NCBI GenBank assembly: GCA_030694465.1
Contig: JAUXYJ010000103.1
Coordinates: 155,057 to 219,056 of the forward strand
Length of the DNA stretch: 64,000 bases
Source: Deltaproteobacteria bacterium
Lineage (GTDB): Bacteria; Myxococcota_A; Polyangia; Polyangiales; Ga0077539
Direction: 5' to 3'
Shown here piece after piece: positions 7-38,163 of the stretch. The notes under the pieces were generated by a model. It was not told where the DNA came from and did not search any database. It saw nothing but the letters and a program-made list of their open reading frames with translations. The translations under genes were made by a program, and so were the position numbers. Within the stretch, counting starts at the first letter, position 1; the number at the start of each line of letters is the position of its first letter.

Positions 7-450
7 GTGGGCCCCAGCGCGCTCCCTTGGGCGCTCTGTACGTTGGGCGCGTGGATCGCGACCGGCTGGCGCGGCGGAGCGCTTCTTTTGGGCGCCAAAA
101 AGGGACTCATTGCGGGCTTCGCGACGCTCTTGTTGCCGCTGTCTCTCTTGCGCCCATGCTGTCGTCCCGGCGTCGTGATGACCGCGGACTGCTGCACGCG
201 GCCAGAGCTCTGTGTGCTCGCGGGGAGCGCAATCGGTTTTGGACTCGCGGCACTGTTGCCCAAATCTCGCGACGCTTCACGCTGGGAAACTGCTGGTGGA
301 ATGGTCGTAGGCGTCCTGTCCGTCGCCGTGCTCAAGTGCAGCAAACTGTTTGTCGGCGAGGCGATGGGATTGCTCGTGGGGTTGTCCGTGGGCGTGTTGG
401 TCGTGTCGAGCGTCGCGAGCTTGCGAACTGCGCGATCCACAGCAGCGTGA
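7..450 (+). CDS. hypothetical small membrane protein (Gly/Leu/Val-rich, multiple predicted TM segments)
   Basis: GTG-initiated ORF at the window edge. Strongly hydrophobic composition resembling small stress-response membrane proteins. No recognisable catalytic motif. Could be spurious. Confidence 0.25.
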   Translation: MGPSALPWALCTLGAWIATGWRGGALLLGAKKGLIAGFATLLLPLSLLRPCCRPGVVMTADCCTRPELCVLAGSAIGFGLAALLPKSRDASRWETAGGMVVGVLSVAVLKCSKLFVGEAMGLLVGLSVGVLVVSSVASLRTARSTAA

Positions 451-29381: not shown

Positions 29382-30014
29382 TCAGCAGTGCGCGACGTTT
29401 GCCGCACGAATCATCATCGCGCGCACCACCCTGAGCACCACCGCGTTGTTGAGCCCTACGCGCTCGGTCGCGCCGATGCCCGACTGCACGGTGGTCACAT
29501 AGCGCCGCCGCGAGATGCTCCCTGGCGTCGCCACGTAGCCCGAGACCGCGGCCGCCTCGACCAAGACCTCGATGGTGGCCCCACGAGGGCTCGTCCAGCG
29601 GATCCTCGACATCCGCCGCGCCAAGATCCCGCTGAGGTCCTCGGCGAGGTCCTGCGCCCTAAACGCGGTCTGCTGCGAGGTCACTGGGGCGAGCCTCCGC
29701 AATCGTCTCGCCATCGCCCGCTCACCGATGCGCTCAAGGGCCATCGGCGCGAGCTCGCGCACCATCATGTCCGCGATCACGTAGCCCACTTCGCGCTCGG
29801 AAAACGCGGCAGTGCTCACGCCGGATGAGTTGTCAATTTGCACGTCGCTGAGCCCGCCCGCGACCGCGCGGAGCTGTCGCATGGCGTCGTTGCGCAAGAG
29901 ATTGAGCGTGGGGCTCGGCGAGAGACACCGCGGCTGCGCGCTCGCTCGCGACGGTCCCACGGTGATCGCACTCACACACACGGCCAACGCACACACCCAG
30001 GTCGTCCAACGCAT
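29382..30014 (-). CDS. secreted protein, cassette component B (paralogue of 31654..32277)
   Basis: Signal peptide MRWTTWVCALAVCVSAITVGPSRASA. It aligns along its whole length with the B' copy (QPRC.SPSPTL…AAFSEREVGYVIADMMVRELAP…ANVAHC). The start is set at ATG 30014 to avoid overlap with glk. Confidence 0.5.
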   Translation of the reverse strand: MRWTTWVCALAVCVSAITVGPSRASAQPRCLSPSPTLNLLRNDAMRQLRAVAGGLSDVQIDNSSGVSTAAFSEREVGYVIADMMVRELAPMALERIGERAMARRLRRLAPVTSQQTAFRAQDLAEDLSGILARRMSRIRWTSPRGATIEVLVEAAAVSGYVATPGSISRRRYVTTVQSGIGATERVGLNNAVVLRVVRAMMIRAANVAHC

Positions 30015-30027
30015 GGGCGCCAGTGTC

Positions 30028-31020
30028 TCATGCCAGCAGGGCTGACGCTCGCGCGGCGCCCCACAATGGCAAGCGCTCGTCGGTGATGAGCCAGATGGGC
30101 ATGGCCGCGAGGGTCTGCGCAAAGCGCCCCTTGTCGCTAAATCCCCTGCAAAAGTCCCCGAGTTCGAGCACTTTTGCGAGCTTGGCGCTCACGCCCCCTG
30201 CGACGTACACTCCGCCGCGAGACAGCACGCTCAGCGCGAGGTTGCCTGCCTCGGCGCCATACAGCTCGCAGAAGCGTCGGGCTGCGCGCATGCACAACAC
30301 ATCTCGGCCCTGGACCGCTTCGTCACCGATGACCGCCGAGGGGTCTTCGTGGGCCATGCGCTCTCGGACACGTGGGCTCTCGGCGCCTGGTTCGCGCTGG
30401 GCCATTGAGGCATAGACCCACGCGAGACCTGGGCCAGAGACAATTCGCTCGACCGAAACGTGAGGGTTTTCGCCGCCCAATCGCGCTTGGGTAAATCGCA
30501 ACAGGGCGACGTCTTCGTCGGTCCGTGGCGCGAAGCTCTTGTGTCCACCCTCGGTCGCGATCGCGAAGTGTTGTCCCTGGTGTGCGATCAACGCGCTCTC
30601 GCCCAAGCCCGTCCCTGCGGCGATCACGGCGATGTTGGCGTTGCGATCCGCGGTGCCTTCTTGCAAGCACACACACTGCGAAGGGTCGACCGCGAGCACC
30701 CCGTACGCGGTCGCTTGGAGGTCATTGAGCAAGAGCACCCGCGAGGGCGCGACCCCCAGCGTATGCGCGAGCGCGCGGCCGTCGATGACCCAGCGCAGGT
30801 GCGTGGTCTCACAGCGCTGATCGCTGACCACTCCGGGGAGCCCAAAGCATGCCGAGGTCACGCGCGAATCCGAGAGAAATTGCACACAGAGCGCATCCAG
30901 AGAGTCCCACGATGCGCTGTCAAAGACAGCCTCGCGCACGAGGCTAGGCGTGGGCCCTTGGGTCTCGAAGAGGCCGAGTCGAACTTTGGTTCCACCGATG
31001 TCACCTGCGAGGATTGTCAC
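30028..31020 (-). CDS. glk: glucokinase
   Basis: ILAGDIGGTKVRLGLF N-terminal ATP-binding motif typical of Glk. LLNDLQATAYG. GTG start at 31020 assumed. Confidence 0.85.
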   Translation of the reverse strand: MTILAGDIGGTKVRLGLFETQGPTPSLVREAVFDSASWDSLDALCVQFLSDSRVTSACFGLPGVVSDQRCETTHLRWVIDGRALAHTLGVAPSRVLLLNDLQATAYGVLAVDPSQCVCLQEGTADRNANIAVIAAGTGLGESALIAHQGQHFAIATEGGHKSFAPRTDEDVALLRFTQARLGGENPHVSVERIVSGPGLAWVYASMAQREPGAESPRVRERMAHEDPSAVIGDEAVQGRDVLCMRAARRFCELYGAEAGNLALSVLSRGGVYVAGGVSAKLAKVLELGDFCRGFSDKGRFAQTLAAMPIWLITDERLPLWGAARASALLA

Positions 31021-31076: not shown

Positions 31077-31682
31077 CTAGCGACGCCCAGAGAGCTCCGA
31101 GCGGGTGATCCTGGGCTCTTGGTCGCGGCCAAAGCCAGGCAACCACATTCGCGCAGAGATCACCCCGCGAAAACTCAGCACGCCGTGCTGCACCGAGAGC
31201 GAGGCTTGAGAGAACACAAGATCAACGAACACCGGTGAACTTCCAGTCCGACAGGGCGTCCCCTCGGCGATCACGGCGGTGTTGCGAGTCCGCGCGAGGG
31301 GCACAACGCACAACACCTCGGCAGGCTCAAAGACGGTGAGCTGCAGGCCCCTCCCTGGGATGTCTTCGATCCGCATCGTGAGCGTCACGGGTCTCACCAG
31401 AGGCAGAGGCTCGCCAGGTCCCGACAGATGGGTCGCCGTCCCGGTCATGGTCCACACCCCCACCATGGACTCGAGGGGTGCCTCTTCGAGCCTCGTGAGG
31501 GGGTCATCGAGGGGCGTGCTCGCGCCGCACGAGAGCGCGCAAAGCGCCTGCCCCATCGCGAGCGCGATCCCCAGAGTCCGCGTCGCCCGTCTGTCCCCCA
31601 TGGTCTTCACCTTGGGGGTGACTGTAGCAAACCTCGGGCAAGATGGGTAGTGGTCACTCACATCGCGCCACGCTCGCAGCAC
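31077..31682 (-). CDS. lipoprotein, cassette component A' (paralogue of 28821..29333)
   Basis: Lipobox ALSCGAS. It has GVWTMTGTAT, …EGTPCRT…, GVLSFRGVIS. Confidence 0.5.
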   Translation of the reverse strand: MLRAWRDVSDHYPSCPRFATVTPKVKTMGDRRATRTLGIALAMGQALCALSCGASTPLDDPLTRLEEAPLESMVGVWTMTGTATHLSGPGEPLPLVRPVTLTMRIEDIPGRGLQLTVFEPAEVLCVVPLARTRNTAVIAEGTPCRTGSSPVFVDLVFSQASLSVQHGVLSFRGVISARMWLPGFGRDQEPRITRSELSGRR

Positions 31683-32277
31683 GGATCAACATCGCCCTCA
31701 TGATTTGCAGTACCGCTTCACTCTGTAAGCCTACGCGCTCGGTGGCTCCGACCCCTGACTGGATCGTGGTGACATAGCGCACGCGGTGCATGCTGCCGGG
31801 GGTCGCGACATAGCCCGAGACCGCAGCCGCCTCGACCAGAACCTCGAGGGTCGCACCACGCGGAGTTCTCCAACGGACACGCCCCATCCGTCGCGCGAGC
31901 GTGTTGGCGAGGTCTTCGGCAAGGTCCTGCGCCCGAAATGCGGTCTGCTGGGAGGTCACCGGCGCGAGCCTCCGCAGACGCCTGGCCATCGCGCGCTCTC
32001 CGATGCGCTCGAGCGCGAGGGGCGCGAGCTCACGGACCATCGTGTCTGCGATCACATAGCCAACTTCGCGCTCTGAAAACGCAGCCAAGTCCACACCCGA
32101 TGAGTTGACGATAGGGACATCTCGGAGACCCGTCGCCACGTGATGAAGCTGCCGCATCCCGGCGTCACGGACCATCGCCAACGTGGGACTAGGCGACACA
32201 CACCGAGGCTGTGCAGAGGCACTCACCGACGCGCTGCCAAGCACAAGGACACACAGACTCGCAGGGATCCATCGCAC
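31654..32277 (-). CDS. secreted protein, cassette component B' (paralogue of 29382..30014)
   Basis: Signal peptide MRWIPASLCVLVLGSASVSASA. About 75% nucleotide identity with the B copy over its length. Confidence 0.5.
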   Translation of the reverse strand: MRWIPASLCVLVLGSASVSASAQPRCVSPSPTLAMVRDAGMRQLHHVATGLRDVPIVNSSGVDLAAFSEREVGYVIADTMVRELAPLALERIGERAMARRLRRLAPVTSQQTAFRAQDLAEDLANTLARRMGRVRWRTPRGATLEVLVEAAAVSGYVATPGSMHRVRYVTTIQSGVGATERVGLQSEAVLQIMRAMLIRAASVARCE

Positions 32278-32393: not shown

Positions 32394-32897
32394 CTAACCC
32401 GGCGACGTCGCCGGGTTACTCACTGCCATGGCGTCTACCCGCGCGACGAGCGCATCGAGCCGGTCCACCAGCGCACGTTGCGTGTCAATTTGCTGCTGTG
32501 CGAGCGCTTGCGCGGTGTCTTCTCGGGCTCGCTGCGCTGCGCTCGGGGGCTCGAGCGCGCGCGCGGCCATCGCGGGCCCGAGGGTCATCAATGCGCTCGC
32601 GATGGCCTTGCCCGCGGTGGTCACCGCGAACACCCGCGCATAGCCCACCGAGAGACACGTGGTGGTGAACACCAAGGCGTCCCAGAACGAGTTGACCTCG
32701 GGGTTTGCGTCGCGCTCGGCGACATAGAACAGCCACGCGCTCCCGAGGCTCGTCGCGATCACCGCGTCCAACGGATCTTGGGCGATCACTGCGCGAAGCT
32801 CATCGCGCGCCGCGCCGTACGCGCCGCCTAGGTCTTGCGACCCAAGCACGCGGCCAAGCGCTGAGAGCGCGAGGGTCTCGGCGGCGTTTGTGCTCAT
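32394..32897 (-). CDS. 2-TM ion-channel-like protein with K+-channel-type pore loop (non-canonical filter)
   Basis: TM1 (LDAVIATSLGSAWLFYVA), then NSFWDALVFTTTCLSVGYA (cf. K+-channel sfwWavvTmTTVGYGD), then TM2 (VFAVTTAGKAIASALMTLGPAMAA), then a helical C-terminal tail. Its ATG overlaps the flotillin stop (ATGA). Confidence 0.55.
   Translation of the reverse strand: MSTNAAETLALSALGRVLGSQDLGGAYGAARDELRAVIAQDPLDAVIATSLGSAWLFYVAERDANPEVNSFWDALVFTTTCLSVGYARVFAVTTAGKAIASALMTLGPAMAARALEPPSAAQRAREDTAQALAQQQIDTQRALVDRLDALVARVDAMAVSNPATSPG
32396..32417. repeat. GC palindrome copy 2 (AACCCGGCGACGTCGCCGGGTT, perfect 22-nt palindrome) forming the last 7 codons of the channel-like gene
   Basis: Direct reading. 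On the minus strand it encodes …NPATSPG followed immediately by TAG. Confidence 0.8.
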
Positions 32898-35083
32898 GCG
32901 CCCTCGGCCTCGCGTGCGGTGTCACTCGCTGCGCGCACACCGATGGTGCCCGTGGCGTTGGCGTCCATCGCGGCGAGTTTGGCTGCGAGCTCGGGGTCTT
33001 CGTTGGCGACCTTGCGCAGCTCTTCGGGGAGCGCGCCCAGCATTTTGCGCGCCGAATCGGTCAGGCGGTCCGTGTCAACCTGTGCAAACTGCATGAGCTC
33101 ACGCAAGAGCGGAAACGCCGCGCCCGCCTCGAGGATCGTGCGCAACACAGGCGACGCCGCGCCGAACGCGCCCTGTCCGTTGCCCGACCCGGCGACGTCG
33201 CCGGATGAGCCACCCTGGCCATTGTTCATCTGCAAGACCTTGATCTCGCGGATGGCGTGCGCCGGGGCCATGAGCTCTTTGGTCACGTCGGGCAGCACGG
33301 TGAGCGCCTTGAGCACGATGTCACGCAGCAAGAACTTGCTGGCCACTTGGTTCTCGGCGTCGACCAACGCTTTGCGTGCGTCGGCCTCGGCGGCGCCCTT
33401 TTGCCGCGTCGCTTCAGCGAGCGCGATGAGCGCTTCGGCCTCGAGCTGCGCAGCTTTTGCCCGCGCCTCTGCAGTGATTCTCACGCGGTCTGCGTCTGCT
33501 TGGGCCTCGGCACGGACCACATTGGCCGCCGAGTCCGCGGCGACCATGAGCGCGCGCGCAGAGCCCTCTGCCTCGGCGATGTGGCCCTCGGCTTGGGCAC
33601 GCTTCGCCGCTGCAGCGCCGTCGGCTTCGGCTTTGACGGCAGCCGCGCTGGTCTCTGCGCCAAGCTTGCGTACAAAGGCTTCGCGCTCGGCCGCGATACG
33701 CGCTTGCTGAGCGCTCTCTTCGGATTTAATCACCGCGATCTCTTTCTCGCGGCGGGCCTGTGCGGTGGCTTCGACCGTGAGAATTCCCTGGGTTGCCTGC
33801 GTTCGGTCCGCTTCGGCTTGGAGCTTGAGCGCCTCGGCGCGGGCCTCGACCTCGAGCGCCTGGGTCACCGCGATTTGCTTGGACACACGCGCGGTCTCGA
33901 TCACGCGCTGCTTCTCGATTTCGGCAGCCTCGATGGTCTTGACCTTCTCGATCTCGGCGGTCTCGATGGTCTTGCGCTTCTCGACCTCGGCGTTCTCGAC
34001 GGTGCGCTGCTTCTCGATCATCGCGGCCTCGACCTCGCGCTCTTTGGCGATCACCGCGACCTGCTGCTGCTTCTCGGACGAAATCTGCGCCTCGCGGGTC
34101 GCAGCGACGCGCTGAGCCTCTGCGATTTGCAGTGCTTTTTGCTGCTCGATCTTCGCGTTCTGCACAGCCTGCTCTTTCGAGAGCGCGGCCATCTCTTGGT
34201 CGCGCTGCTGCTCGTACACGGCCTTGGCGGTCGCGGTCGATTGCGTCGCGGTGTACTCTTGCACACGGCGTGTCTGGTCACTCTCGTTGCGGTTGTCCGC
34301 TTCGATCAGCTCAAGCGCGCGACGATGCGCGGTGACGTTTTGCTCTTGGATCGCGACGTCGGCTTCGCGCTCGATCAAGTTGGTCTTGCGCGCGTTGGCC
34401 TTCACCTGCTCGGTGATGGTCATCAGGCCCTCGGAGTCAAAGAAGTCCGACGCGTTGAGCTCGGCGATCGACACCATTGCGAGGGCCGTGATTGACACGT
34501 TCTCGAGGGTAAGACCGTTCTTTTTGAGCTCTTCAGAGAGGGCCTTCTGGATGCTCTCGGCGAAGTCTTTGCGGTTGGTGTGCAGCTCCATAAACGAGCT
34601 GTTGGCCGCGACAGAGCGCAGGGCGTCCGTGAGCTTTCCCTCGATGAGATCGCCGATCGCGCCTTCGTCGAGGTTGCGCTCACCAAACGAGCGCGCCGCG
34701 GTGAGCACGTCGTCTTCGAGCGGCTCGACCTTGATGTAGAGCTCGGTCGTGACGGTCGCGCGGATCTTGTCGCGCGTCACCAGGGCCATGTTGCCCGAGC
34801 GATCGACCGTGAGTTTATGCGAGCGAAGTGAGACTCGCATGAGCTGATGCAAGATCGGAAACACGGTGACACCGCCGCCGATCACCACTTTGTTTCCGCC
34901 TGCGCCCGTACGCACCAGCGCCTCGTCAGCGCCACAGCGACGATAAAACCGCGCGATGGTGACGAGCAACAGCGTGAACACAAAGATCACCGCCGAAGCG
35001 ATCAACGCCGAGACAATAAACTGCGGCTGCTCCCAAAAGCGAAGCGCCGAACCCTGTGCGACAAAGACCTCTAGCTGATTCAT
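32894..35083 (-). CDS. flotillin-like SPFH/band-7 protein (YqiK-type) with long EA-rich coiled coil
   Basis: N-terminal TM, PHB domain (…KLTVDRSGNMALVTRDKIRATVTTELYIKV…) and an extended EA/Q-rich repeat region typical of flotillins. Confidence 0.85.
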   Translation of the reverse strand: MNQLEVFVAQGSALRFWEQPQFIVSALIASAVIFVFTLLLVTIARFYRRCGADEALVRTGAGGNKVVIGGGVTVFPILHQLMRVSLRSHKLTVDRSGNMALVTRDKIRATVTTELYIKVEPLEDDVLTAARSFGERNLDEGAIGDLIEGKLTDALRSVAANSSFMELHTNRKDFAESIQKALSEELKKNGLTLENVSITALAMVSIAELNASDFFDSEGLMTITEQVKANARKTNLIEREADVAIQEQNVTAHRRALELIEADNRNESDQTRRVQEYTATQSTATAKAVYEQQRDQEMAALSKEQAVQNAKIEQQKALQIAEAQRVAATREAQISSEKQQQVAVIAKEREVEAAMIEKQRTVENAEVEKRKTIETAEIEKVKTIEAAEIEKQRVIETARVSKQIAVTQALEVEARAEALKLQAEADRTQATQGILTVEATAQARREKEIAVIKSEESAQQARIAAEREAFVRKLGAETSAAAVKAEADGAAAAKRAQAEGHIAEAEGSARALMVAADSAANVVRAEAQADADRVRITAEARAKAAQLEAEALIALAEATRQKGAAEADARKALVDAENQVASKFLLRDIVLKALTVLPDVTKELMAPAHAIREIKVLQMNNGQGGSSGDVAGSGNGQGAFGAASPVLRTILEAGAAFPLLRELMQFAQVDTDRLTDSARKMLGALPEELRKVANEDPELAAKLAAMDANATGTIGVRAASDTAREAEGA
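33187..33206. repeat. GC palindrome copy 3 (GACCCGGCGACGTCGCCGGA) inside flotillin CDS
   Basis: Identical 20-mer to copy 1. It encodes SGDVAGSG in the Gly-rich C-terminal region of the flotillin. Confidence 0.8.
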
Positions 35084-35200
35084 GGTGTCCCGACCTCCCG
35101 ATGTTTGTGACCAAGTTGTGCTGTGAATTTGCTGACCAACGCGACCATCGCGCGGACACCAGAGACACAGCTACAGGCTCGGCACAGACTGCGATACTTG

Positions 35201-35941
35201 CTATGTGCGACGACGACCGGGCAGCACGCTGTCGAGCGCGCTGACGACCAGTCGACCTTGCTCTTGCTCGACCACAACGACCTCGCGTCCCTCTTCAATG
35301 GGCACGCTGTCATGGGTCACGCACACCACACGGACGACGTGCCCGATGCGGTCTTTGATCCGAACCTCGCCAAACTCGCGGTCGACCCTGCTTGAGATCA
35401 CCACGCCGCTGCTTCCCACGAGCCCCTCGCGCGAGGTCGCCTCTTGGCCCTCGGTCGAGAACACTTTGCCGGCGATCGCCGCCATCGCGCGGGTACACAG
35501 CGCACCGATCACCAGCGCGATCGGGATCACCCAGACCATGGACCACAGCGGCGGCCGCGCGAACCCATAGACCAGCGTGTTGACCGAGAGCCCCGCGACG
35601 GCAAACGCCACCGCGAAGGTCTGCAGCAAGAAGGTCATCGGCGCGCGACCAAAGCCCAACAAGCCCACGAGCGAGACCGTGGCTTCGCCCTGCACGCTCA
35701 CGGCGTGGTGCCCTTCGCTCTCGCTCTCACCGTCCGCGTCTCCATCGCCGTCGGCGTCGGTGTCCACGCTGTCCGGGACTCCGTCGCCATCGCTGTCGTG
35801 GCCGTCGGCGTCGCCATGGTCACCGCCCGCGAGCAAGCCCAGGACGCCTGAGACCTGCAAGAGAGCTACACCTACCGCGATCGCGACCGCGGTGAGATAA
35901 GGCACGTTTGCCCAAGCGAGCCATGCAGACAAAACGGTCAT
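35201..35941 (-). CDS. NfeD-like (YqiJ-type) membrane protein with C-terminal OB-fold
   Basis: N-terminal TM helices, an acidic/His-rich loop (DHGDADGHDSDGDG), and a C-terminal beta-rich segment (GEVRIKDRIGHVVRVVCV…VVVVEQEQGRLVV) typical of NfeD partners of flotillins. Confidence 0.7.
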   Translation of the reverse strand: MTVLSAWLAWANVPYLTAVAIAVGVALLQVSGVLGLLAGGDHGDADGHDSDGDGVPDSVDTDADGDGDADGESESEGHHAVSVQGEATVSLVGLLGFGRAPMTFLLQTFAVAFAVAGLSVNTLVYGFARPPLWSMVWVIPIALVIGALCTRAMAAIAGKVFSTEGQEATSREGLVGSSGVVISSRVDREFGEVRIKDRIGHVVRVVCVTHDSVPIEEGREVVVVEQEQGRLVVSALDSVLPGRRRT

Positions 35942-36291
35942 CAAGAACGGCCCTTGCGTGCCACACGCTCTCGCCCAAAAAGACGAGATGCGCGGCCGCG
36001 AAGTGAGAGAATGCGGGTGGGAAACCTCCGCAAAAAAGTGAGCGCCACGATGGGTGCAGATCCGCGTTGGCTCCGTCAACGGCAGATCGGTCACGCATCA
36101 TCCGATTTTGCGCGGCTGTCACCGAAGGCTTTCTGGCGAAAAGTTGCCTTGGAGCGCGGTTCTGTAGCTTAGCTCGGCCAGATTCGGTCACCTGGACGCG
36201 CCCCACGCGGCGCCGCGGGTGTCCCCCTCTGCCACGAGAGCGGGTTGTTTTGTAGTCCAACACAGCCGCCTCGTGTCATCCGACGGAGCGA

Positions 36292-38163
36292 GTGATGGGC
36301 ATGAACGAGCACGCGATTTCGGCGCAAACAACCCTGCTGACCATGGCACCCGCGTGCGAGACCTCGGACGAGAGCCTCGACGCCACCGAGACCATGATGG
36401 AAGAGACGGAGCTCTCGGGCAGCCCTGCGCTGATCGCGTTTGCGCAGCGCGCGGCGGCAGAGCGAGACGGGCTGCGGAGCGAGATTCATCGCATCCGCGA
36501 GGCGTTTGCGAGGCTCGAGTCCCAGTCGCGTATGGGCAAGACCCCGTCGCGCGAGACCGCTGAGCTGCGAGAGACCCTTGAGCTCCGTGACCGCGAAGTG
36601 CGACGGCTGAAAGACGCCAACATCGCCCGCGAGAGGCTGTTGACCGACGCGCGCAATCGACTGGACGAAGCGCTGCATCAGCGCGCCGCCGCGGTCGCCA
36701 AGCTCGACCTCCGTGAGCGTGGTGTAAGCGCGATCGAGAGCGCTCTTGAAGAGCACAAGCACGAGCTCTTGCACACGCGACGGCGTGTAGCGCAGCTTGA
36801 GATCGAGCTTCATCGGGCGGTCCAGAGCGAGCGTGGTCTCTCTGCGATGCTCGAGGACACGCGCGGGCAGCTCTCTGAGGCGAGGCAGTCGCTTGAGACG
36901 CTACACAGCGAGCTCAGCGACACCCGTGAAGCGCTCACGATGTCCAACGACGCCGCGGTCTCACGCGAAGAGGCCCTGCGCGCAGAGCGTGCTCGGCTCG
37001 ACGCACAACGCGCTGAAGAAATCCTCGTCGAAATGGAGCGGCGCGAAGAGCTCTCAGCAGAGCTTGAGGCGTTGAGTGTGCGGCACGTGCACGAGCTCGC
37101 GCTGAGCGAATCGCGCGCTGAAGAGAGCCTCGAAGTCACACGCAAAGAAGCGAACGAGCGACTCGCAGCCCTCTGCGCACACGCTAAAGAGGACCTCGCT
37201 GCGGCGCATGTGGGGTACTCACGCGGGCTGCAGTTTGCGCTTCATGAGCAGACCGAGTCCGCGCTCGCCGCGCGCGAGGCGCTCTGTGCGTGGCACGCCG
37301 GCGAGCTCTTGGGGCAGCGATTTGCCCTGCAAGAGCGCGTCGTGAGCGAACGCGATCAGCACACTGCGACCCGCGCGCGGTTTATGCTTGAGCTCAACGC
37401 GATGACGCAAGACTGCGATCGCATGGTCGAAGAGCACGCGCTCACGCGCAGCGAGCTCACCGCGACGCTTGAGGGCACCACCCGTGGGCTCGCCTTTGTG
37501 CGCGCCGAGACGCAGTCCGAAGTGGCCTCCGAGCGCGCCCTCCGCATGGCCGAGGCCACACGTCACGGTCAAGCCATGAACGCGCTGCGTGAGGCCCACG
37601 AGCGGAGCCTCTGCGACCAGGACGAATCGAGCGAGTTTGCAGCGACAGCGCTTCGCACACGGATCGCTCGCGAGACCGAGCGCGCGCGCAAGCTCGAGGG
37701 CGAGCTTGAGGCGAGCGCACAGCACCGAGACCAGTGCGCCGAGCTGGTCGCCGCGTGGCTCACTGCACGGGACGAATCGATTGCATATTTGCAGGCAGAT
37801 CGCGCGGAGCTGCGTGCCCTCTACGAAGAAGCCGACGCGGTCCGAGAGCGACTCGCGCAGGCGAGCGTGGATGCAGCGAAGCAAGCGCGTGGCGCACGCG
37901 AGCGCGCAGAGTCGGCCGAACGACAGCTGCTTGAGCGCACGCAGGCGATCTCGGCGACCGTGGGGATCCTCACGCGAGTGACCGTCGAGCAGCACGCGGT
38001 CGCAGGAGCGCTACGGCACAAGCGCGCGCTGCCCACCATGGCCGACGTCGACGCTGCCATCGCGGCGGTGACCCAGCGCGTGCCCGAAGAGATCGGCGAA
38101 GAGCTCTGGCTCGCGCGCGACGCGATCGCCGCAGCGATCTTCGCGGGCCCCTCGATTGATTGA
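36292..38163 (+). CDS. large coiled-coil protein (SMC/myosin-tail-like, E/R/L/A-rich)
   Basis: 623 aa of near-continuous heptad-like charged sequence. No antisense competitor of comparable length. It is divergent from the nfeD–flotillin operon. Confidence 0.5.
   Translation: MMGMNEHAISAQTTLLTMAPACETSDESLDATETMMEETELSGSPALIAFAQRAAAERDGLRSEIHRIREAFARLESQSRMGKTPSRETAELRETLELRDREVRRLKDANIARERLLTDARNRLDEALHQRAAAVAKLDLRERGVSAIESALEEHKHELLHTRRRVAQLEIELHRAVQSERGLSAMLEDTRGQLSEARQSLETLHSELSDTREALTMSNDAAVSREEALRAERARLDAQRAEEILVEMERREELSAELEALSVRHVHELALSESRAEESLEVTRKEANERLAALCAHAKEDLAAAHVGYSRGLQFALHEQTESALAAREALCAWHAGELLGQRFALQERVVSERDQHTATRARFMLELNAMTQDCDRMVEEHALTRSELTATLEGTTRGLAFVRAETQSEVASERALRMAEATRHGQAMNALREAHERSLCDQDESSEFAATALRTRIARETERARKLEGELEASAQHRDQCAELVAAWLTARDESIAYLQADRAELRALYEEADAVRERLAQASVDAAKQARGARERAESAERQLLERTQAISATVGILTRVTVEQHAVAGALRHKRALPTMADVDAAIAAVTQRVPEEIGEELWLARDAIAAAIFAGPSID

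Follow-up and report, generated by a model that had tools for sequence, protein, structure and literature searches.

It is known from animals and bacteria that proteins with an SPFH domain can act as partners of ion-conducting complexes. The pairs stomatin-ASIC, MEC-2-MEC-4/10, podocin-TRPC6 and STOML3-Piezo as well as the bacterial FliL-MotAB, in all of which an SPFH scaffold is functionally tied to an ion-conducting complex, are cited in the reference list of PMC11260169 and in PMC6426602 and PMC8794807. SPFH proteins also form cages around clients, as in HflK/C-FtsH, and flotillin-1/2 assemble into a 44-mer cage that is 32 nm wide at the membrane (PMC11260169). For the E. coli SPFH-NfeD pair YbbK (QmcA)-YbbJ (NfeD), a cytoplasmic cage of 26 heterodimers is cited in PMC13086221. 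A gene for flotillin-associated rhodopsin (FArhodopsin) adjoins and is co-transcribed with flotillin, with 93% collocation in long reads (PMC10308929), and a short YqiJ_N-type NfeD is encoded upstream of flotillin in E. coli yqiJ-yqiK and B. subtilis yuaF-floT (PMC2636767). Here, a locus is described in which an nfeD gene and a flotillin gene are followed by a third gene, encoding a 167-aa pore-loop protein of the K+ channel superfamily. It occupies positions 32394-35941 on the minus strand of the window, i.e., the stretch of 64,000 nt from contig JAUXYJ010000103.1 (Deltaproteobacteria bacterium, assembly GCA_030694465.1) that was analyzed.

The locus consists of three head-to-tail open reading frames (ORFs), read as an nfeD/yqiJ-like gene, a flotillin gene and the gene of the 167-aa protein (Table 1). 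A preliminary description, made by a model from the letters of the window, had proposed a tightly coupled three-gene operon, and the ORFs were found as described, all on the minus strand. The ATGA overlap that it had noted between the flotillin and the small gene was likewise seen, and a GAGG lies close upstream of it. The spacer between nfeD and the flotillin gene is one nucleotide shorter than the 118 nt given there, and carries GGGAGG at 35094-35099, 10 nt ahead of the flotillin ATG. The nfeD-like ORF remains open beyond its ATG, up to a GTG at 36094.

The domain search, the profile alignment and the predicted fold together show that the 167-aa protein belongs to the KcsA-like family of pore-loop proteins with two transmembrane (TM) helices. 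The Pfam search that had been proposed as a check gave Ion_trans_2 with 31.7 bits (cut-off 22.5; E 1.4e-7), and the Minicystis rosea orthologue reached 36.6 bits. A word-indexed search returned 322 homologues, nearly all of 130-180 aa, which carry generic automatic names only ('ion channel', 'voltage-gated potassium channel'). An exhaustive HMMER search of 1.84 billion cluster representatives gave 73 clusters with E<=1e-30, a number that rose to 214 with E<=1e-10 and to 845 with E<=1e-3. By these sequence comparisons, the family is a small, well-separated clade within the K+ channel superfamily. As the superfamily is known and the protein already bears the automatic annotation 'ion channel', it is not categorically new. 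A profile built from 27 family members matched KvAP with an E-value of 4e-9 and full-length KcsA with about 1e-7, and it spanned KcsA residues 36-158 including the C-terminal bundle helix (3pjs, 1f6g, 3eff).

An AlphaFold2 monomer model, calculated with the family alignment as input, had a pLDDT (predicted local distance difference test) of 83 and showed the order TM1, pore helix, filter, TM2 and helical tail (Table 1). The architecture claimed in the preliminary description was thus borne out by Pfam, profile alignment, model and structure search. In the latter, performed with Foldseek against the PDB, every top match was a K+ channel pore, with modest E-values of 2e-3 to 2e-2; KcsA chains were matched with target-normalised TM-scores of 0.61-0.68 and a root-mean-square deviation of about 3.7 A over about 91 columns. 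The family resembles KcsA in its TM1, pore helix, filter, TM2 and long cytoplasmic C-terminal helix. It differs from KcsA by about 40 additional N-terminal helical residues, by V-F in place of the W-W cuff, by a short TM2 in which a Pro-Pro break comes after the Gly-Pro hinge, and by the fixed place of its gene in a flotillin operon. The TM helices of the model are short (about 20 residues), and L115, just past TM2, is nearly invariant among homologues.

Residues 69-87 of the channel protein read NSFWDALVFTTTCLSVGYA, the string quoted in the preliminary description. In the HMMER register, T-C-L-S-V-G-Y-A-D of the family stands opposite T-A-T-T-V-G-Y-G-D of KvAP/KcsA, with a gap-free filter; the window protein has T-C-L-S-V-G-Y-A-R, with S83-V84-G85-Y86-A87 as the filter. 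The pore helix is one residue shorter than in KvAP/KcsA (a single-residue alignment gap), and the KcsA filter TTVGYGD is replaced by LSVGYA followed by D, N or R. The 3-residue filter insertion that had been claimed was therefore rejected: it arose because the TTT of the pore helix had been set against the filter threonines, a register ruled out by the profile alignment of L-S-V-G-Y-A with T-T-V-G-Y-G. The change from GYG to GYA, claimed at the same time, was found at A87. Consequently, the window protein with S-V-G-Y-A does not match the canonical K+ signature T-[VI]-G-[YF]-G.

Across the 27-sequence alignment, T80, S83, V84, G85, Y86, G107 and P108 are invariant. SVGY was present in 120 of 120 close homologues, where the next residue is A (96), D (18), C, S or H and in none G. 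Among 150 more divergent cluster representatives, this position holds A, S, D, C, H, T or G, with SVGYG in only 8-9. Other filters of the superfamily also depart from TVGYG, namely NaK with TVGDG, CNG/HCN, and hERG with SVGFG, which shares the Ser-Val-Gly start. To our knowledge, in none of these is G-Y retained and the last Gly alone exchanged for Ala, Ser, Asp, His or Cys. The hERG-type SVGFG channels show that K+ selectivity can be attained with serine in place of the filter Thr; by sequence, the only truly atypical filter position is the last Gly, which in the clade is Ala or another residue. At this position, Gly adopts a backbone conformation that is disfavoured for other L-residues, and it shapes the outer sites. 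Since Ser is tolerated in the hERG type and the last Gly shapes the outer sites, the inner K+ sites are, by analogy, probably kept and the outer mouth changed.

Conservation of the gene neighbourhood was surveyed in both directions. In the channel-first survey, a genome scan with peptide patterns (one genome per GTDB species) yielded 72 loci, on which hidden Markov models were built in two rounds; 3 loci were cut by contig ends and 69 were assessable. Flotillin adjoins the channel gene in 63 of these 69 loci, which belong to Myxococcota (Polyangia, including the cultured Minicystis rosea DSM 24000 and Byssovorax cruenta), Chloroflexota (Anaerolineae, Caldilineaceae, Thermoflexales) and Planctomycetota (Phycisphaerae, Tepidisphaerales). 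In the Minicystis locus, all three domains were found by Pfam. In the flotillin-first survey, with a profile of 13 flotillins, the best 80 of 510 metagenomic matches were considered, down to about 32% identity; the channel was present in 65 of the 66 of these loci with enough flanking DNA and missing only in L148. Adjacency to flotillin was thus consistent across genomes, and the proposed check for co-occurrence with SPFH/NfeD genes was strongly positive both ways.

The gene order is mostly nfeD-flotillin-channel. The order channel-nfeD-flotillin occurs in L040, L064 and L067, a divergent arrangement in L038, L046 and L050, and a channel-first order also in L136 of the flotillin-found loci. 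Both genes were available for 128 loci, in 120 of which flotillin is followed by the channel on the same strand. A candidate channel start lies at -30 to +12 nt from the flotillin stop in 99 of these 120, a count skewed to small gaps by the choice of the nearest in-frame start. The ATGA overlap and the small gaps suggest co-transcription of the channel gene with that of flotillin. The pairwise identities of the three proteins vary together (Spearman 0.66 for channel-flotillin, 0.70 for channel-NfeD and 0.91 for the remaining pair), which deserves little weight, as it is expected of any vertically co-inherited neighbours. Among flanking genes across the loci, no other family was common to more than about 13 loci, so the conserved unit is exactly nfeD, flotillin and channel.

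Some loci depart from this layout. A gene of the PspA/IM30 family lies between flotillin and channel in five Chloroflexota loci (Table 1), and PF04012 matched three of the five inserts with 83, 47 and 28 bits. This gene points to a tie of the module to the membrane-stress or membrane-remodelling machinery; for B. subtilis, an SPFH-PspA connection is already known (PMC8581546). Two of the five loci, L048 and L051, stem from one contig (JBGLNJ010000001.1) of an Anaerolineae metagenome-assembled genome, which hence carries two flotillin-PspA-channel copies at a distance of about 3.4 Mb; only for the L051 copy was an NfeD gene found. A subclade with GYDD...FPKT, whose filter region is ATSLSVGYDDVFPKT (L054, L058; also L045, L047, L055 and L038), is mostly not linked to flotillin, and in L054 (8473-9018) and L058 (5922-6473) a class I/II aminotransferase gene (PF00155, 139 bits) immediately precedes the channel gene. 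The ORF at 9047-10234 of L071 was considered as a flotillin-channel fusion of the Rosetta stone type and rejected. In it, a flotillin that lacks its N-terminal part (mid-SPFH to coiled coil remaining) runs in frame into a channel without TM1, which begins only with the pore helix; with both parts truncated, the ORF looks like a deletion-derived, decayed locus and offers no evidence of interaction.

The flotillin of the window matched Band_7 with 70.7 bits and Flot with 74.4 bits in Pfam; the NCBIfam model FloT gave 66 bits, far under its equivalog cut-off. It is composed of an N-terminal hydrophobic anchor, an SPFH domain, a long Ala/Glu-rich coiled coil and the Flot C-terminal domain. Since the hydrophobic anchor is followed by basic residues (FIVSALIASAVIFVFTLLLVTIARFYRR), the SPFH domain and the coiled coil are predicted to lie in the cytoplasm. 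The NfeD-like protein matched YqiJ_N with 39 bits (cut-off 23). Its C-terminal OB-fold domain, PF01957, scored 18.2 bits (cut-off 29.1), with 54 of 57 profile positions aligned in the expected C-terminal place. Prokaryotic flotillin-short NfeD operons are recognized by Band_7 with a flotillin C-terminal domain and by an NfeD-type gene upstream on the same strand, and both were found here. In most related loci, too, an NfeD homologue is encoded directly upstream of flotillin.

After its first hydrophobic segment, the NfeD-like protein contains a low-complexity loop rich in Asp, His and Gly, which reads DHGDADGHDSDGDGVPDSVD... (DHGDADGHDSDGDGVPDSVDTDADGDGDADGE...). An expanded loop rich in (D-x)n or DH is present in nearly all module-linked NfeDs of the three phyla, e.g., HDVDHDVDHD or DADADVDAD. 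The NfeD of L148, the only assessed flotillin locus without the channel, has VEKDLA repeats in place of the Asp/His loop. Judged from its composition, the loop may provide a cation-, metal- or pH-binding surface beside the pore. If YqiJ-type proteins have three TM helices and a cytoplasmic C-terminal OB domain, the loop would be cytoplasmic, on the same side as flotillin and the channel termini.

Compared with the described systems, the module shares single features with each. Like E. coli yqiJ-yqiK and B. subtilis yuaF-floT, it has a short YqiJ_N-type NfeD upstream of flotillin, whereas no channel gene lies downstream in E. coli, E. coli YqiJ has just a short DAHLDHYD instead of the expanded Asp/His loop, and the window flotillin is about 180-220 aa longer than E. 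coli YqiK or B. subtilis FloT. Like the YbbK-YbbJ cage, the module has both scaffold components, an SPFH protein and NfeD. In contrast to HflK/C-FtsH, the client would be an ion channel and not a protease, and a cage is presumed for the window flotillin. Like the FArhodopsin cluster, it places a gene for a polytopic membrane protein consistently beside the flotillin gene; there, however, the partner is a seven-TM rhodopsin, the taxa are Pelagibacterales, HIMB59 and Pseudothioglobus, and the cluster has other genes. The stomatin, MEC-2, podocin and STOML3 pairs and FliL-MotAB are paralleled in that an SPFH scaffold accompanies a channel, here by gene linkage; they differ in that no operon unites them with a flotillin-type SPFH protein and in that their channels are unrelated to two-TM K+-type pores.

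The preferred reading, to which a probability of about 0.6 is assigned, is that four copies of the 167-aa protein form a KcsA-like cation pore whose outer-filter chemistry is altered and which acts together with the flotillin-NfeD assembly, probably beneath it. The channel would most likely be a homotetramer, with its N-terminal helices and long C-terminal helix facing the cytoplasm as in the K+ channel topology. The filter would keep the inner K+ signature, made up of the Ser hydroxyl and the backbone positions of Val, Gly and Tyr. Since replacement of the last Gly would alter the outermost ion sites, selectivity and inactivation should differ from those of canonical K+ channels. A conductance without simple K+ selectivity, possibly gated by the microdomain, had been suggested in the preliminary description and is likewise a conjecture. 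Flotillin and NfeD would assemble on the cytoplasmic membrane face as an SPFH-NfeD ring or cage, and the channel, as a dedicated client, may be confined under or beside it. The assembly might then control clustering, lipid surroundings or gating of the channel, and the module may couple the flow of cations to membrane state or stress. A further step, proposed tentatively and held to be doubtful, is that the module represents the first bacterial SPFH-ion channel machine. In it, a cytoplasmic flotillin-NfeD cage would surround a KcsA-like pore of its own, whose filter is not K+-canonical; ions might flow into a semi-sealed sub-membrane compartment lined by the NfeD Asp/His loops, or the cage might gate the pore by membrane state. 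If true, the cage with its enclosed pore would be a hard-wired prokaryotic counterpart, possibly an evolutionary precedent, of channel regulation of the stomatin/MEC-2/podocin type.

Several observations weigh against a pore that works under flotillin and NfeD. What argues for contact between them is genomic linkage, and both surveys (63/69 and 65/66) draw mainly on close relatives; filter conservation in the channel-first survey is given by construction, its patterns including the filter motif. Six channel loci have no flotillin nearby (L030, L041, L045, L047, L054 and L058, mostly of the GYDD...FPKT subclade), so the pore can exist without flotillin. Such members would also be expected of an ordinary K+-selective channel that merely shares an operon, and hence a regulon, with flotillin and NfeD for one stress response, with no physical or gating tie to them. 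The generic Ion_trans_2 membership, the canonical SVGYGD in 8-9 of the 150 representatives and the K+ selectivity that hERG-type channels attain with Ser at the filter Thr position would agree with this explanation. It is nevertheless considered unlikely, because the linkage is near-obligate both ways and was kept through gene-order rearrangement in three phyla, because the stop/start arrangement looks translationally coupled, and because the great majority of members do not have the last Gly of GYG. Pairing as tight as this between genes is typical of subunits of one complex.

Conduction itself is also called into question by some of the sequences. A few distant members have degenerate filters (LTSTSSD, ASGGSGG, LSTQACS), and together with the variable last filter position these could indicate a relaxed constraint on conduction. 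In addition, the residue after the filter is Arg in the window protein (GYAR) but Asp or Asn in nearly all of its relatives. The same features, and the short TM helices, would suit a channel-derived structural subunit that has lost its pore function and, as a tetrameric plug or anchor, nucleates or positions the flotillin-NfeD assembly. However, most of the family shows little or no variation in S-V-G-Y, in the pore-helix Thr and in the Gly-Pro hinge, which is hard to explain without a working pore, and a non-conducting subunit is thus regarded as still less probable than a co-regulated K+ channel. High-GC DNA is rich in spurious ORFs; that the small ORF is one of them, or lies beside flotillin by chance, is effectively excluded by 322 homologues, 214 clusters at E<=1e-10, a significant domain match, a predicted fold and synteny kept in 128 loci.

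A full-text literature search, with most subscription-journal papers outside it, returned no description of a flotillin-NfeD-channel module or of its filter, and no GYA filter; the SPFH evolution paper that defines flotillin-NfeD operons does not mention channels. This agrees with the preliminary description, whose author knew of no flotillin operon with a dedicated pore-loop subunit. Exchange of the last filter Gly throughout the clade and the near-obligate three-gene module with flotillin and NfeD therefore appear to be undescribed. The function and the clients of bacterial flotillins are unsettled, and the clients proposed so far come mostly from co-fractionation or microscopy. With its candidate built-in client, the module is a defined and minimal system of three small genes, amenable to genetics and present in cultured Minicystis rosea DSM 24000, in which the action of an SPFH/NfeD assembly on a membrane protein could be studied. 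The module also parallels the animal SPFH-ion channel partnerships. The family is, moreover, a natural experiment on the K+ selectivity filter, as the last Gly of GYG is systematically replaced with S-V-G-Y left invariant.

Table 1. Features of the nfeD-flotillin-channel locus (positions in the window) and PspA-like inserts in related loci (positions in the respective locus).
Feature	Position	Strand	Basis or remark
nfeD/yqiJ-type gene, 246 aa from ATG	35201..35941	-	YqiJ_N match; membrane-anchored flotillin partner
Asp/His/Gly-rich low-complexity NfeD loop, residues 41-79, DHGDADGHDSDGDGVPDSVDTDADGDGDADGESESEGHH	35705..35821	-	sequence
nfeD-flotillin spacer, 117 nt	35084..35200	-	sequence
Flotillin gene, 729 aa	32894..35083	-	Pfam Band_7 and Flot
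ATGA, overlap of flotillin stop and channel start	32894..32897	-	sequence; translational-coupling arrangement
167-aa two-TM pore-loop protein (K+ channel superfamily)	32394..32897	-	Ion_trans_2, family profile, AlphaFold2, Foldseek
N-terminal helices, residues 3-19 and 23-40			AlphaFold2
TM1, residues 42-61	32715..32774	-	AlphaFold2; aligns with KcsA/KvAP outer helix
Pore helix, residues 71-83, and filter S83-V84-G85-Y86-A87-R88	32634..32687	-	AlphaFold2; HMMER register
TM2, residues 94-114	32556..32618	-	AlphaFold2, alignment; invariant G107-P108 at hinge position
C-terminal cytoplasmic helix, residues 119-160	32418..32543	-	AlphaFold2, pLDDT 88-98; aligns with KcsA bundle helix
Perfect 22-nt palindrome AACCCGGCGACGTCGCCGGGTT	32396..32417	-	sequence; covers the last codons of the channel gene and the first base of its stop codon
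PspA-like inserts	L042 4986-5465; L048 9413-9908; L049 9122-9827; L051 9370-9908; L053 6605-7109		

At the end of the operon, the palindrome AACCCGGCGACGTCGCCGGGTT may form a 3' hairpin, acting as a T-less terminator or as a stabilising hairpin; the terminator scan did not call it, a T-run being absent. A sigma-70 promoter scan found nothing, and the terminator-like matches were no better than those in shuffles. None of the three proteins matched a PADLOC defence-system model at E<=0.01 or had a specific NCBIfam model. Pfam gave no match for the neighbours at 31654-32277, 36169-36813 and 36292-38163 of the window. The last of these, on the plus strand and divergent from the nfeD promoter region, encodes a Glu/Ala/Arg-rich protein of 623 aa that is apparently a coiled coil, and other loci do not have it beside the module. 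Two minus-strand genes (29382-30122 and 31654-32277) encode paralogous predicted secreted proteins of 246 and 207 aa, likewise without a Pfam match. The two are very similar over most of their length (...CLSPSPTL...REVGYVIADMMVRELAP...), and their genes flank a glucokinase gene and a 201-aa ORF that lie a short way downstream of the operon.

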